Shown: piece by piece, positions 1 to 6,000 of the stretch | Layout: every line of letters begins with the position of its first letter | How positions within the stretch are numbered: the first letter of the stretch is position 1 | Source of the DNA: a virus | Taxonomy: Duplodnaviria; Heunggongvirae; Uroviricota; Caudoviricetes | Virus record (IMG/VR): IMGVR_UViG_2537561620_000008 | DNA: 7,794 bases | Direction: 5' to 3' (one strand) | Program-made: the position numbers

Positions 1-3000
1 GATCCAGCGGTTTTGATGTCAGCCATGATGTTGGCTATACGCGCTTTGGCAGGTAATGAAAGATTAATCTGTTAATGAGTCCCACTCCGGTGGGATTTTT
101 ATGTACGGAGTTTATATGACGTGGAAAGACAGACTTCAGGACGCGTCATTTCGCGGTGTGCCGTTTAAGGTTGAAGAAGAAAATGCGGGAACCGGTCGTC
201 GTGTGGAAACGCACGAATACCCGAACCGCGACAAACCCTATACCGAAGATCTGGGAAAAGTCACTTTCCGCCCGTCCATCACGGCTTATGTGGTGGGCGA
301 TGACTGCTTTGACCAGCGCGATCGCCTGATTGACGCGCTGAATAAACCCGGTCCCGGCACGCTTGTCCATCCGACATACGGTGAGCTGAAAGTCTGTGTT
401 GACGGAGAAGTTCGGGTCAGCACATCGAAGAATGAAGGGCGTATTGTCCGCTTTGACCTGAAGTTTGTCGAAGCGGGAGAACTCTCTTACCCCACATCAG
501 GTGCGGCGACGGCGCAGACGCTGATGTCATCCTGTTCTGCACTGGATGACTGCATCAGTGACAGTTTCAGTGGTTTCAGTATCGATGGCGTGGCAGATTT
601 TGTGCAGAACGACGTCGTCGGTAATGCCAGCACAATGCTTGGGTATGTTTCTGATGCGATGAAAGTGGTGGATTCTGCCGTATCGGATGTCGCCAGGCTG
701 TTGCAGGGGGATATCTCGGTACTTCTGCCGCCGCCATCGTCAGGCAAAAATTTCGTTGAGCAGGTGCAGAAAATGTGGCGTACCGGGAAACGCCTTTATG
801 GTAACGCCAGCGACCTGGTCACCATGATCAAAACGCTTTCCGGTGTCAGCCTCGGCAGCGATCTGCAACCGCGTCGGCGTCTGGAAAACGGCAGTAAAAC
901 CACCGCACGGCGACGCAGCAGCGTAACGTGGTTGCCAGCACCCTTCGTACGACCGCAATCAGCGAAGCGGCGTATGCCGTTACCCGATTGCCTGCGCCAA
1001 CAACTTCCGCGGTGATGCAGAATGCCGCAGTGGAGCAGGCAACAACACCCGCGCAGAGCACTTGCTGGCCTTCCGCCACGCATCCGGCACTGAACAATGC
1101 ACCGGCGGTGAAAAACACGGTTGACCTGCCGACGTGGGAAGAACTGACTGACATTCGCGACACACTGAATACGGCAATTGATAAGGAGTTGTCCCGTACA
1201 ACCAGCGATGCGCTGTTTCTGGCGCTGCGCCGGGTGAAAGCAGATCTGAATGCGGATATCAACACGCGCCTTGAACAGTCTGCACGGATCATTCAGCGCA
1301 CACCGGATGAGGTTTTACCCGCGCTGGTGCTGGCGGCGACCTGGTTTGATAACGCGGCGCGTGACGCGGACATTATCCGGCGTAATGCCATTACGCATCC
1401 CGGCTTTGTGCCGGTGATCCCTCTGAAGGTGCCAGTGCAATGAACGATAACGTCACGCTACGGGTAAATGGCCGGGAGTGGAATGGCTGGACATCGGTGC
1501 GCATCGGTGCCGGTATTGAACGGCTGGCGCGGGATTTCAGTGTGGAGATCACCCGCCAGTGGCCGGGAGATGAGGGTATCACCACGCTTCAGCCGCGCAT
1601 TAAAAACGGTTCAAAAGTGGAAGTGCTGATTGGTGATGAGCTGGTGATCACCGGCTGGGTGGAGGCGACGCCCGTTCGTTACGATGCCCGTTCGGTCAGC
1701 ACCGGTATTGCCGGACGCAGTCTGACCGCTGACCTGATTGACTGTGCAGCCGAACCGACACAGTTTAACGGACGAGAGCTGGTACAGATTGCGCAGGCGC
1801 TTGCTGCGCCTTTCGGCATTGAGGTGGTGAACAACGGTGCGCCGTCGGGTGTTATTCCTGATGTTCAGCCTGATCACGGTGAAACGGTGATTGAGGTAAT
1901 CAACAAAATAACTCGGTCAGCAGCAGGCACTGGCTTACGACGACCCGCACGGCAGGCTGGTGATTGGTGGTATTGGCTCAACGCGGGCACATACTGCGCT
2001 GGTACTCGGGGAAAACATCCTTTCCTGCGATACGGAGAAGAGTATCCGGGAGCGGTTTTCTGTTTACCAGGTGGCGGGGCAGCGTGCCGGAAACGACGAT
2101 GATTTCGGTGAGGCCACCACCACCGCGCTGCGGGCCCGCACAGAGGACGCATTTATTGCCCGTTACCGTCCGATGTATATCAGGCAGACAGGGCAGGCTA
2201 CGGGGGCAGGCTGTATTGCGCGTGCTGACTTTGAAGCCCGGCAACGGGCGGCGCGGACGGATGAAACCACCTATGTGGTGCAGGGCTGGCGACAGGGTAA
2301 CGGTACGCTGTGGCAGCCCAACCAGCGGGTGATTGTCTTCGATCCGGTCTGTGGTTTCGACAATACCGAACTGCTTGTCTCGGAAGTCACGTTTACTCAG
2401 GACCAGAATGGCACTCTGACGGAAATCCGTGTCGGCCCGCCTGATGCTTATCTGGCCTGAACCCGAAGACCCCGGCGCGCGGAAAAAGAAAAAAGCCAGA
2501 GTACAGGAGGACCCGTTCTGATGAGGACGATTGAAGCCATGCAGCGACAACTCCTCGGCCTGATTGGGCGGGCCGTGGTGAAAAGCATCAGTGCCGCCAC
2601 GAAATGTCTGACCGTGGATGTGTCCCTGATTGCCGGTGAACCCAAAGCCGGGGTTGAACATCTTGAACCCTACGGTTTTACCGCAAGGGCAAACAGCGGT
2701 GCGGAAGCGGTGCGGAAGTGGTGGTGTTGTTTCCGGATGGCGACCGTTCTCATGCGGTGGTTGTTACGGTGTCGGACCGGCGCTACCGCCTGAAAGGGCT
2801 GCAGACGGGTGAGGTGGCTGTCTATGACGATCAGGGGCAGTCCGTGACGCTGACCCGGGAGGGGATCGTGGTGGACGGTGCAGGTAAAACGATCACGTTT
2901 CGCAATGCACCTGAAGCACGTTTTGAAATGGACCTGGAAGTGACCGGACAGGTGAAAGACCTGTGCGACTCCGGCGGCACCACCATGTCAGCAATGCGGC

Positions 3001-6000
3001 TTGCCTATAACGGTCATCGTCACAGAGAGAACGGTCAGGGCAGTAACACCGATAAACCTGATAAAGCGATGGAGGCATGATGGAACTGTGGCTGATGGTG
3101 AACGGTAAACGCACCTGCGCCAGCGCACCGCTGGATCCGCTGACCCGCGCCGTGGTGATTTCCCTGTTTACCTGGCGGCGGGCGGAGCCTGATGACAACG
3201 CCGACGTCCCGATGGGATGGTGGGGGATACCTGGCCTGCGGTACAGAATGACCGTTACGGCTCCCGACCGTGGCTGCTTCAGCGCAGCAAACTGACCAAT
3301 CAGCTGGTGCAGACGGTAAGGGGGTATATCCGCGAATGCCTGCAATGGATGATTGATGACGGCGTGGTGTCCCGTATTGATCTGGATATCCGCCGCACCG
3401 GGATTAATGAACTGGGTAACAGTATCACTCTCTGGCGTCGTGACGGACCGGTAATGATTTCTTTTGATGATCTGTGGAGTGCGATAACGCATGGCGGACA
3501 GTGAATTTCAGCGCCCGACGCTGGCAGAAAATATCAGTATGCTCCGTAACGATTTATTCGTCAGGCTGGACGTCAGCGACACGCTCCGGCGCATGGATGA
3601 AGACGTGCGGGCAAAGGTGTATGCGGCGGCGCTGCATACGGTCTACGGGTACATCGATTATCTGGCAATGAATATGCTGCCTGACCTGTGCGATGAGTCA
3701 TGGCTGGCGCGACATGCTGCGATGAAACGGTGTCCGCGCAAGGGGGCCACGGCTGCCAGCGGGTATATGCGCTGGGAAGGTGTCAGCGATGGCCTGAAGG
3801 TGACCGCCGGAAGTGTTATTCAGCGCGATGACCTGGTTCAGTACACGGCAACTGCCGATGCAACCAGCTCCGGTGGTGTCCTGCGCCTGCCGATCGCCTG
3901 TTCAACTGCAGGCGCGGTCGGTAACGCTGACGACGGTACGGCATTAATCCTGGTCACGCCGGTGAATGGTCTGCCGTCTTCCGGTGTTGCAGATACCCTG
4001 ACAGGTGGATTTGATACTGAAGAGCTGGAAACGTGGCGCGCCCGCGTCATTGAGCGGTATTACTGGACGCCGCAGGGCGGGGCTGACGGGGACTATGTCG
4101 TCTGGGCTAAAGAAGTGCCCGGCATTACCCGTGCATGGACATACCGTCACTGGATGGGAACGGGAACTGTTGGTGTGATGATTGCCAGCAGTGACCTGAT
4201 TAACCCCATTCCGGAAGAATCAACGGAAACGGCGGCAAGACAACATATCGGGCCACTGGCCCCGGTGGCAGGCTCTGATTTGTATGTGTTCAGGCCGGTG
4301 GCGCATACGGTGGATTTTCATATCCGTGTGACGCCGGATACACCGGAAATACGGGCTGCCATCACCGCGGAGTTGCGTTCGTTCCTGCTGCGTGATGGTT
4401 ATCCGCAGGGAGAACTGAAGGTATCGCGTATCAGTGAGGCGATTTCCGGTGCGAACGGGGAATACAGCCATCAGTTGCTTGCCCCGGCTGACAATATCTC
4501 CATTGCAAAAAATGAACTGGCGGTTCTGGGGACGATTTCATGGACGTGACAAACGATGATTACATCCGTCTGTTGTCGGCACTGTTGCCCCCCGGTCCGG
4601 CGTGGTCAGCCAGAGATCCGGCGATTGCCGGTGCGGCACCGTCATTAACCCGCGTTCATCAGCGTGCGGATGTCCTGATGCGGGAGCTGGATCCGCGCAC
4701 CACCACTGAACTGATAAACCGCTGGGAGCGTCTGTGCGGTCTGCCGGATGAATGTATTCCCGCAGGGACACAGACCCTTCGCCAGCGTCAGCAACGACTG
4801 GATGCGAAGGTTAACCTGGCGGGCGGCATCAATGAGGATTTTTACCTTGCACAGCTTGCTGCCCTGGGCAGACCAGATGCCACCATCACGCGATACGACA
4901 AAAGCACGTTCACCTGCTCATCGGCCTGTACTGACGCGGTGAATGCGCCGGAATGGCGGTATTGCTGACAGGTCAACATGCCAGCCGCCACCAACAGCAC
5001 CTGGATGACATGTGGCGATCCCTGTGATTCCGCACTGCGTATCTGGGGTGGCACCGTTGTCGAGTGTGTGCTTAACAAACTCTGCCCGTCGCATACCTAC
5101 GTAATTTTTAAATATCCGGAGTAATCCATGCATCGTATAGACACGAAAACCGCGCAGAAGGATAAGTTCGGCGCGGGTAAGAACGGTTTTACCCGTGGTA
5201 ACCCCCAGACCGGCACACCTGCCACCGATCTGGATGATGACTACTTTGACATGTTGCAGGAGGAGCTTTGCAGCGTGGTGGAGGCATCCGGTGCCAGCCT
5301 GGAGAAGGGGCGGCATGACCAGCTGCTTACCGCGCTTCGTGCGCTGCTGTTAAGCCGCAAGAATCCGTTTGGCGATATCAAATCGGATGGCACTGTGCAA
5401 ACGGCTCTCGAAAACCTTGGTTTGGGAGAAGCAGCTAAAAGGAATGTAGGTACAGGGGCGAATCAGATACCTGATATGAGCCTGTTCGCGTCAATTAATA
5501 CCGTAACGGCTGCTGCGCAAAAATTTCCGTCTGGATTAATTTTACAGTGCGGTCAGTTGAATGGTGCCCCGAATGTATCTTCAACATACGGGATGAGGTT
5601 CCCGATGACGTTCTCAAGAGTCATTGCTGTCGTAGTTACATTGAACGTTACTGGCGCGGCTGGGCAGCCGACTGTATCGGCGACAAGTGTCCAGAACACT
5701 GGATTTAATATTACTGTGTCGCCCGGTTCAGGATACGGTTCATCTGCTGATGCGTATTACATTGCAATGGGATATTAACGAAATGTCATATTTTTATTCT
5801 GCATCGACAAACGGATTTTATTCGACTGAATTTCACGGCACCAATATTCCTGATGATGCAGTGGAAATCTCGGAATCAGAGTGGAAAACACTGATTAATG
5901 CACAGAGTGTAACAAAAATGATTACCTGTGGTGAGAACGGTCATCCTGTCATTGTTGACCGTCCTTCTCCAACACCAGAACAATTAGCCTTAATAAATGA

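Follow-up and report, generated by a model that had tools for sequence, protein, structure and literature searches.

We analysed a stretch of DNA of 7,794 bp, further called the window, which is the entire contig AKMX01000008.1 of GCA_000268245.1, the 2012 draft of Shigella flexneri K-1770 (SFL1520, serotype 3b). The window covers the late end of a prophage of the SfV family, whose contractile tail is of Mu type: N, P, gp45 to gp48, a fibre, a fibre chaperone and a dead gtrV. The following features were identified.

1..56, plus strand: tail tape-measure gene, 3' part only, as the contig starts inside the gene; from alignment with the last part of SfV orf14, stop codon at 54-56
101/116..1443, plus strand: N (Mu gp43-like DNA circularization / tail protein; Pfam DNA_circ_N), broken
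1440..2521, plus strand: P (Mu gp44-like baseplate hub), broken, with the Pfam GpP-like domains divided across two ORFs
2521..3080, plus strand: gp45 (baseplate assembly protein V / central spike; Pfam Phage_Mu_Gp45), broken by a tandem duplication
2698..2719, plus strand: 11-bp tandem duplication, GGTGCGGAAGC GGTGCGGAAGT (second copy 2709-2719), from comparison with the wild type
3080..3504, plus strand: gp46 (baseplate wedge, GP46 family), broken by G6-to-G5 at 3221, from comparison with relatives
3491..4549, plus strand: gp47 (Baseplate_J), intact, 352 aa; the exact protein is recorded on no contig but AKMX01000008.1
4540..5124, plus strand: gp48 (Phage_Mu_Gp48 / YmfQ), with TGG-to-TGA at 4966-4968, from comparison with relatives
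5128..5778, plus strand: short tail fibre (Gp53-like_C), intact, 216 aa; the exact protein is listed
5687..6190, plus strand: tail fibre assembly protein (Caudo_TAP), intact, with alternative starts at 5750 and 5783, from the ORF and Pfam
6240..6263, no strand assigned: GC-rich hairpin, an intrinsic terminator between the convergent late operon and gtr genes (rho-independent terminator in the SfV annotation)
6313..7644, minus strand: remnant of gtrV (serotype V glucosyltransferase), from alignment to SfV
7348..7444, no strand assigned: 10-bp tandem array TTTGATATGG within gtrV, from repeat analysis (TRF)
7641..7794, minus strand: gtrB, 3' part only, as the gene runs past the end of the contig; from alignment to SfV gtrB

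The window was colinear with SfV, SfI, SfII and SfIV, with nucleotide identity of 97.1-97.5%. For SfV (NC_003444 / U82619) identity was 97.1% across 99% of the window, and the order and orientation of the genes, from the tape-measure end via N to the chaperone and through the terminator to convergent gtrV and gtrB, matched SfV orf15-orf22 and gtrV. However, all these genes are intact in SfV, and 14 indels separated the two sequences, two of which are the 11-bp duplication and the expansion of the gtrV repeat by 80 bp. Gene order, the Pfam family of each ORF, high identity and convergent gtr genes past the fibre genes identify the locus as an SfV-family late operon. The prophage is of the common SfV type, and this finding is ordinary and already known. 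For the exact 216-aa fibre protein, the collection lists 29 blocks (24 contigs were read), and the finished K-1770 genome is among them. The module also resembles the tail and baseplate module of Mu, as the Pfam families of N, P and gp45-gp48 follow in equal order and the SfV annotation gives Mu counterparts, but sequence kinship is distant and the likeness is one of Pfam families and SfV annotation. An R-type tailocin was considered and judged improbable; paralogous copies in the K-1770 draft have capsid and connector genes upstream, which argues for phage origin.

The original prediction, in which gp45 was named Q, held that five of six consecutive baseplate genes were disrupted in a preserved operon. 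We confirmed the preserved layout: gene order is kept, stop and start codons are coupled (ATGA at 1440; TGATG at 2519-2523 and 3078-3082; overlaps at 3491 and 4540) and Shine-Dalgarno motifs of GGAG type lie upstream of the starts. Five of the six genes are indeed disrupted in the deposited sequence. All six were intact and of identical lengths in the annotated relatives (10/10), and in comparison with them the gene disruption in the window is far beyond chance. We found no intact homologue that shared the frame arrangements of the window; the homologues examined have single ORFs. The prediction had also assigned one lesion to each broken gene, but N has three indels and P two, and the positions that it gave were those of the resulting frame overlaps and not of the underlying mutations. 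Nor are the lesions limited to 101-5124, as they also include an intergenic one upstream of N (T6-to-T5 at 95) and those of minus-strand gtrV.

The lesions were compared in an alignment of 38 sequences, namely the window and 37 homologues, in which a change was called private if it was seen in one sequence only. For gp45, the wild-type site has 7-bp direct repeats AGCGGTG at 11-bp spacing. The gene with the duplication gives a product of 90 aa, the first 62 residues of which are native. We observed the exact 90-aa product on four other independent contigs, all with an intact P; two of these contigs reach far enough to include gp46, which is intact there as well. A one-residue variant of the product (L versus Q) was present in 31 blocks of assemblies, with N-gp48 otherwise intact. 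Over 30 independent assemblies of S. flexneri carry the duplication (it is present in L023-L026 and L040-L047), with intact N, P, gp46, gp47 and gp48 as far as the contigs reach. It was detected in none of the E. coli records (0/1,088), and an exact-pattern scan for its junction in species-representative genomes, among which Shigella is without separate representation, gave no match. The gp45 duplication is a real mutation, which arose by replication slippage between the AGCGGTG repeats and is inherited in an S. flexneri prophage lineage. The S. flexneri prophage with this duplication (L040, L042-L047; K-1770 contig AKMX01000020.1) shares with the window the 11-bp duplication and, save L versus Q, the 90-aa gp45, but it differs in that N, P and gp46-gp48 are intact, has another right end and shows approximately 1.7% divergence from the window.

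Three lesions were seen in the gtrV remnant: the T-run at 6957 is shortened by a deletion, a VNTR is expanded, and the run at 7613 is T6 instead of T7. The deletion at 6957 was common to 10 other contigs, T6 at 7613 was private to the window contig, and the 274-aa gtrV fragment was found in 35 blocks of assemblies. The array consists of 9 complete units (9.7 by TRF), compared with 1 in intact gtrV; a scan of viral contigs for the expanded repeat returned solely the VA-6 contig. The gtrV-remnant loci of other S. flexneri (VA-6 AFGW01000014.1; ABSWAS010000185.1; many contigs of 2-3 kb) have the T-run deletion at 6957 and the expanded 10-bp array as in the window, with zero substitutions versus the window over 6001-7794. 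They differ from it in a deletion of 166 bp, by which gp47 and gp48 are joined into a single product of 483 aa, in an intact gp46 and, where covered (VA-6), in an intact P. VA-6 is without the 11-bp gp45 duplication, and the ABSWAS contig begins downstream of that site. The gtrV T-run deletion and the expansion of the 10-bp repeat are real and widespread.

Since the gp45 duplication and the two shared gtrV lesions are real, the prophage is genuinely cryptic; the gp45 duplication, the gtrV T-run deletion and the repeat expansion are all reproducible in independent assemblies. The essential tail genes are not uninterrupted, as the truncation of gp45 is confirmed by independent assemblies. Because the truncated protein is the central spike/hub, this copy is unable to make a baseplate by itself, and the earlier expectation that the baseplate is unlikely to assemble was upheld for this copy alone. 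A fully intact paralogous module of the same strain (L015) could complement the defective copy.

The poly-G tract of gp46 was repeatedly one base short in unrelated genomes. As regards the lesion at 3221, the G5 allele was not present in the nearest relatives of the window. It was matched at 100% in 7 of 1,056 finished E. coli records, and 71-aa gp46 products with the same shifted tail were found on more than 100 contigs. Since the G5 allele occurs in finished genomes, the gp46 lesion may be real. G6-to-G5 is a recurrent natural allele, which in the window may be either real or a miscall, as the G-tract slips in nature and in sequencers alike.

The lesions of N, P and gp48 had a different distribution. 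N has +T at 874, -A at 891 and -C at 905 (net shift -1), with a stop then at 1013-1015. These three indels fall inside 32 bp, were private to the window contig among the 38 aligned sequences and were matched by none of the finished E. coli records (0/1,018). In P, +A at 1910 leads to a stop at 2100-2102 and +G at 2454 to a stop at 2458-2460; both were private in the 38-sequence alignment and absent from E. coli records (0/778 and 0/534, respectively), and P of the closest S. flexneri contigs is intact, with 359 aa. Together with the intergenic change at 95, the indels at 874, 891, 905, 1910 and 2454 were absent from all 37 homologous sequences. The A at 4968 in gp48 was private to the window contig and occurred in no other sequence compared; the TGA that it makes may be either real or an error. 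Thus, in the comparison of the same prophage in related strains that the original prediction had proposed, the gp45 duplication was shared, and the N and P indels and the gp48 TGA were not. An exact-protein look-up of the 304-aa and 146-aa start variants gave no match. When the out-of-frame tails were used as protein query, we obtained only other frameshifted alleles of N and P, in which the same alternative frames were entered at different sites; this search cannot exclude shared lesions, as it was confined to cluster representatives and recovered neither of the two positive controls.

We compared the numbers of private 1-bp indels between data sources. There were 7 in the window, 3 in K-1770 contig 13 and 1 in VA-6, while the remaining 35 sequences (136 kb) had 0, with 217 private substitutions (Fisher p ~2e-11). 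Two further private indels were found in K-1770 contig 20. In the window itself, there were 7 private indels versus 4 private substitutions (P(>=7/11) = 2e-5 if indels make up 10% of mutations). Changes of run length accounted for 5 of the 7 private indels in 1-6190 and for both of those at the gtr end (7/9 overall), with 874 and 891 as the exceptions, and the indels of contigs 13, 20 and VA-6 likewise alter run length. When the gtrV end was compared with an independent contig 99.85% identical over it, the C7/C8 and T6/T7 runs were the sole indel differences; the C-run of the terminator was 1 base shorter in the window than in three other assemblies. The private 1-bp indels are confined to particular draft assemblies, and single-base run-length changes prevail over substitutions in the spectrum, both of which are marks of artefact.

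K-1770 itself was re-sequenced by MinION plus MiSeq with Pilon polishing, which gave the finished genome CP032513. The copy obtained from it (L015) is an intact paralogous module with 0 private indels; it has 61 substitutions versus the window and is not the same locus. A mutator strain was rejected, because this finished-genome copy of K-1770 carries no private indels. The locus tags of the K-1770 draft run to 5558, and the finished genome has 4,729 CDS. Literature searches did not reveal the platform used for the draft, which may have been flow-based (pyrosequencing).

We consider mixed origins to be the best explanation, with a probability of about 0.78: real inherited lesions in gp45 and gtrV, to which probable errors of the draft were added. 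The 1-bp indels in N (874, 891, 905), in P (1910, 2454) and at intergenic position 95 would be consensus errors of the draft, and to judge from the sequence comparisons they are most likely artefactual. Run-length miscalls could be the mechanism, possibly worsened if reads of the three or four paralogous copies in the genome were mixed. Several points count against errors. The +T at 874 and -A at 891 are not length changes of existing runs, S. flexneri accumulates pseudogenes, and further lesions would have been neutral after the loss of gp45. Only one baseplate gene, gp45, is broken in the natural state of this prophage lineage. The recent inactivation of five genes that had been proposed is therefore probably wrong: most lesions are unsupported elsewhere, the N and P indels being in no other sequence, and one baseplate lesion, that of gp45, is inherited in the lineage. 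Decay and sequence errors had been offered as alternatives; each seems to apply to different lesions, decay to gp45 and gtrV and probable errors to the N and P indels. Slippage, which had been suggested throughout, fits the gp45 duplication, but the gp48 lesion is a nonsense substitution.

As a sub-case of mixed origins, the window may be a collapsed or chimeric consensus of the three or four paralogous copies, so that its substitution patchwork and its indels would both be assembly artefacts. We hold this only tentatively. It is consistent with approximately 35 allele switches in 6 kb among type A (finished K-1770 genome), duplication and gtrV-remnant types, some of which are of a single site, and with the 166-bp deletion of the gtrV-linked copy in other strains, which is missing from the window. 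K-1770 contig 13 stops exactly at the left edge of this deletion, Illumina assemblies have breaks at window position 5781, and contigs 13 and 20 have one A5 miscall in common. However, these phages are naturally mosaic (L023, for example, combines the duplication with type-A alleles), and mixing of copies that differ by substitutions alone does not of itself yield indels.

It is unlikely that all lesions are real and reflect strain-specific decay of one co-resident SfV-like copy, in which seven small indels and a nonsense codon accumulated after the gp45 duplication had lifted selection. The prophage is truly defective, its host is a pathogen rich in pseudogenes, whose genome has 15 phage regions, most of them cryptic, and the window is a real locus, as it shares substitutions with other S. 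flexneri assemblies. On the other hand, the excess of private indels over private substitutions is an implausible mutation spectrum, and in N three of them are packed together. Private indels are also borne by two more K-1770 contigs of paralogous copies, but by none of the 35 sequences from other sources or the finished-genome copy of the strain, and the lesion-bearing products (the 90-aa gp45 aside) and intact gp47 are recorded on no other contig. We are very doubtful that all eight lesions arose after the split from other S. flexneri, as an indel-biased burst in one K-1770 copy among near-identical ones; if they did, the burst could be due to error-prone repair or to abortive gene conversion among the paralogues. 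Programmed frameshifting or phase-variable baseplate expression, which would make the frame arrangements functional and to which the recurrence of the gp46 G5 run in finished E. coli records and many contigs might point, is hardly credible, as N, P, gp46 and gp48 are single uninterrupted ORFs of constant length in every other homologue examined, the N and P sites are without slippery motifs and unique to the window contig, an Rfam search of the window gave no match, and functional frames are already contradicted for N, P and gp48.

With mixed origins as the preferred reading, our results call for caution, as counts of pseudogenes or of 'recent prophage decay' taken from old drafts can be badly inflated. 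The understanding of phage baseplates and of Shigella genome reduction is unaffected. The real biology is modest, and consists of a gp45 slippage duplication fixed in a prophage lineage and of a dead gtrV with a hypervariable 10-bp repeat, the copy number of which varies among strains.

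The window corresponds to contig AKMX01000008.1 in its entirety, from assembly GCA_000268245.1 of Shigella flexneri K-1770. Phage SfV was 97.1% identical to it across 99% of the window length, and SfI, SfII and SfIV were 97.1-97.5% identical across the tail genes. The layout was as follows:

Window start, plus strand: last 56 bases of the tape-measure gene
Then, plus strand, in this order: N, P, gp45, gp46, gp47, gp48, short tail fibre, fibre chaperone
6240-6263: GC-rich terminator hairpin, after the chaperone gene and between convergent operons
Right end, minus strand: gtrV, then the end of gtrB
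6313-7137, minus strand: gtrV remnant, 274-aa fragment
7348-7444, minus strand: perfect 10-bp tandem array TTTGATATGG in gtrV

Pfam matches of the called ORFs agreed with this layout (DNA_circ_N, GpP-like, Phage_Mu_Gp45, GP46, Baseplate_J, Phage_Mu_Gp48, Gp53-like_C, Caudo_TAP); no Rfam family was matched in the window. The window is an SfV-family serotype-converting prophage in a defective state, a situation already well known in S. flexneri. Among finished E. coli genomes, approximately 1,084 out of 5,426 carried the module, with identities of 95-99%.

As references for calling lesions we used five phages (four of Shigella, one of E. coli) and five E. coli prophages, all annotated relatives, and in all ten the six aligned genes were uninterrupted and of equal lengths. 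The lesions within 1-5130 are given below; in this comparison, every indel among them was found in the window only.

95, intergenic: T6 to T5
874, 891 and 905, N: +T, -A and -C, respectively
1910 and 2454, P: +A and +G, respectively
2709-2719, gp45: 11-bp tandem duplication
3221, gp46: G6 to G5
4968, gp48: TGG to TGA substitution

The gp47 gene was uninterrupted. The original prediction that five of the six baseplate genes are disrupted held for the deposited sequence, but not with one lesion each, as N carried three and P two. It had also proposed slippage-type events, or sequence errors, as the origin of the breaks; slippage was wrong for gp48, where a base was substituted. The overlapping stop/start junctions and Shine-Dalgarno motifs that it described were present when we checked them in the deposited sequence. 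We consider it most likely that the five disrupted genes represent one real lesion, one lesion at a recurrent hotspot, the status of which is uncertain, a nonsense codon that is unverified, plus five indels in coding sequence which are errors of the draft.

The slippage duplication cut off gp45 after 62 native residues. The truncated product has 90 aa, including an out-of-frame tail made by the duplication, and exactly this product was also encoded in three NCBI drafts and in a Logan assembly of a public run. In these four further contigs P was a single 359-aa ORF, there were no N indels where the N region was covered, and gp46 was one ORF of 141 aa in the two that reach across it. Further, a one-residue variant of the 90-aa product was listed in 31 blocks of assemblies. 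The variant-bearing contigs returned encoded N of 442, P of 359, gp46 of 141, gp47 of 352 and gp48 of 194 aa wherever the gene lay fully inside the contig. We looked for the duplication in 1,088 E. coli records and it was absent. Since it is common to independent assemblies and absent from these records, the gp45 duplication is a real, inherited, Shigella-specific lesion. Wild-type gp45 carries the 7-bp repeat AGCGGTG twice, spaced 11 bp apart, and therefore slipped-strand mispairing accounts for the duplication. Its halves (GGTGCGGAAGC, then GGTGCGGAAGT) differ by one base, at 2719. As this difference was common to all duplication-bearing contigs, the C-to-T change at 2719 is old and the duplication allele is probably of single origin.

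K-1770 and SFL1520 (serotype 3b) are one strain, and its finished genome, CP032513, is a Pilon-polished assembly of MinION plus MiSeq data. Using the exact fibre protein, we found on it L015 (296,680-317,330), a paralogous copy with 98.7% identity to the window, in which the N-to-chaperone module is fully intact. Since the finished genome carries L015, an intact paralogue coexists with the defective copies. The flank of L015 after the module contained chromosomal lutABC-like genes and a Mu-type transposase, and no gtr genes.

For the single-base indels, we aligned 38 homologous sequences (phage genomes, finished genomes, Illumina and Logan drafts, and metagenome contigs) over window 1-6190. 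Private 1-bp indels, seen in one sequence only, occurred in three of the 38: seven in the window contig, three in K-1770 contig 13 and one in the VA-6 draft. The other 35 sequences (136 kb) had none, despite 217 private substitutions (Fisher's exact test on this split, approximately 2e-11). K-1770 contig 20, a natural duplication-bearing copy, had two more, judged against four independent contigs that agreed among themselves, and an A6-to-A5 change was common to contigs 13 and 20. After same-strain and S. flexneri relatives were added, the window had four private substitutions (62, 3269, 4968, 5051) against its seven private indels. Assuming that indels are 10-20% of spontaneous mutations, the probability of at least 7 indels of 11 is 2e-5 to 2e-3. 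Lesion-bearing sequence was found in 0 of 1,018 E. coli records around 874-905, 0 of 778 around 1910 and 0 of 534 around 2454. Draft locus tags run to 5558 and the finished genome has 4,729 CDS, a difference compatible with many genes being split in the draft. We infer that most of the single-base breaks are draft artefacts.

The private run-length indels of contig 13 (L027, 9687-9952) and contig 20 (L041, 1-220) were A6 to A5, T3 to T5, TT to T and G to GG. They group around the junction of P with gp45, close to the site of the 11-bp duplication that distinguishes the paralogues. Because of its indels, contig 13 has a split gp45 (93 + 88 aa) and a P of 363 aa. Frameshifted N/P alleles from Salmonella and E. 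coli assemblies (P0127, P0128-P0133) used the same alternative frames with different entry sites; public assemblies therefore commonly contain broken copies of this module.

Further, a site-by-site comparison set the window against L015 (type A), a duplication-type copy (type D, L042) and the gtrV-remnant loci of two other S. flexneri strains (type C, L030 from VA-6 and L032, ABSWAS010000185.1). Window 1-6165 switched between these types approximately 35 times in 6 kb, sometimes at a single site. Such switching among three natural types fits a consensus of mixed paralogous reads, but SfV-family phages are naturally mosaic, and natural mosaicism could equally account for it. The gtrV-linked copy in VA-6 and ABSWAS010000185.1 has a 166-bp deletion (window 4454-4619), which joins gp47 and gp48 into one 483-aa ORF. 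That this deletion is missing from the window, while contig 13 stops exactly at its left edge (window-equivalent 4453), also fits mixed reads, as does the breaking of Illumina assemblies at window 5781. A strain-wide mutator is unlikely, since L015 of the same strain has neither the window indels nor any private indels. Programmed frameshifting is contradicted by the single-ORF arrangement, uniform across all homologues.

The gp46 G5 allele was absent from the nearest relatives of the window and matched at 100% in 7 of 1,056 finished E. coli records. More than 100 contigs carried distinct 71-aa gp46 products with the same shifted tail. The G-run (3217-3226) is a recurrent slippage hotspot in the phage family, and likely a miscall site as well. 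In gp48, the stop codon results from a substitution private to the window. The neighbouring G, at 4964, looks private, yet it is common to other gtrV-remnant loci; the A at 4968 was not found in those loci.

On its own, the window copy would be unable to build a baseplate. Every component could come from the intact paralogue of this genome; for that reason, neither induction nor tailocin assays would inform on the window copy.

The gtrV gene is dead, and the remaining operon architecture is preserved. The gtrV remnant is widespread: its exact 274-aa fragment appeared in 35 assembly blocks, each time on contigs below 10 kb, and the T-run deletion at 6957 (minus-strand gtrV) was present in 10 of 10 other remnant contigs checked. 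Serotype 3b, that of K-1770, has no glucosyl modification. The gtrV end was 99.85% identical to an independent contig, with one substitution and two run-length differences (C7/C8, T6/T7). In the terminator hairpin, the C-run was C7 in the window and C8 in three other assemblies, and the G-run was G8 in the window, G7 in VA-6 and G8 in ABSWAS010000185.1; long complementary homopolymers of this kind are miscall-prone. The gtrV array had 9 complete units in the window (9.7 by TRF), a single unit in 8 of 8 intact gtrV genes examined, and 3, 5, 5, 8, 8, 9, 9, 9, 11 and 14 units in ten other remnant-bearing S. flexneri contigs. None of the expansions seen was a multiple of 3 bp. The array is a hypervariable VNTR within a pseudogene, and it might serve for strain typing.
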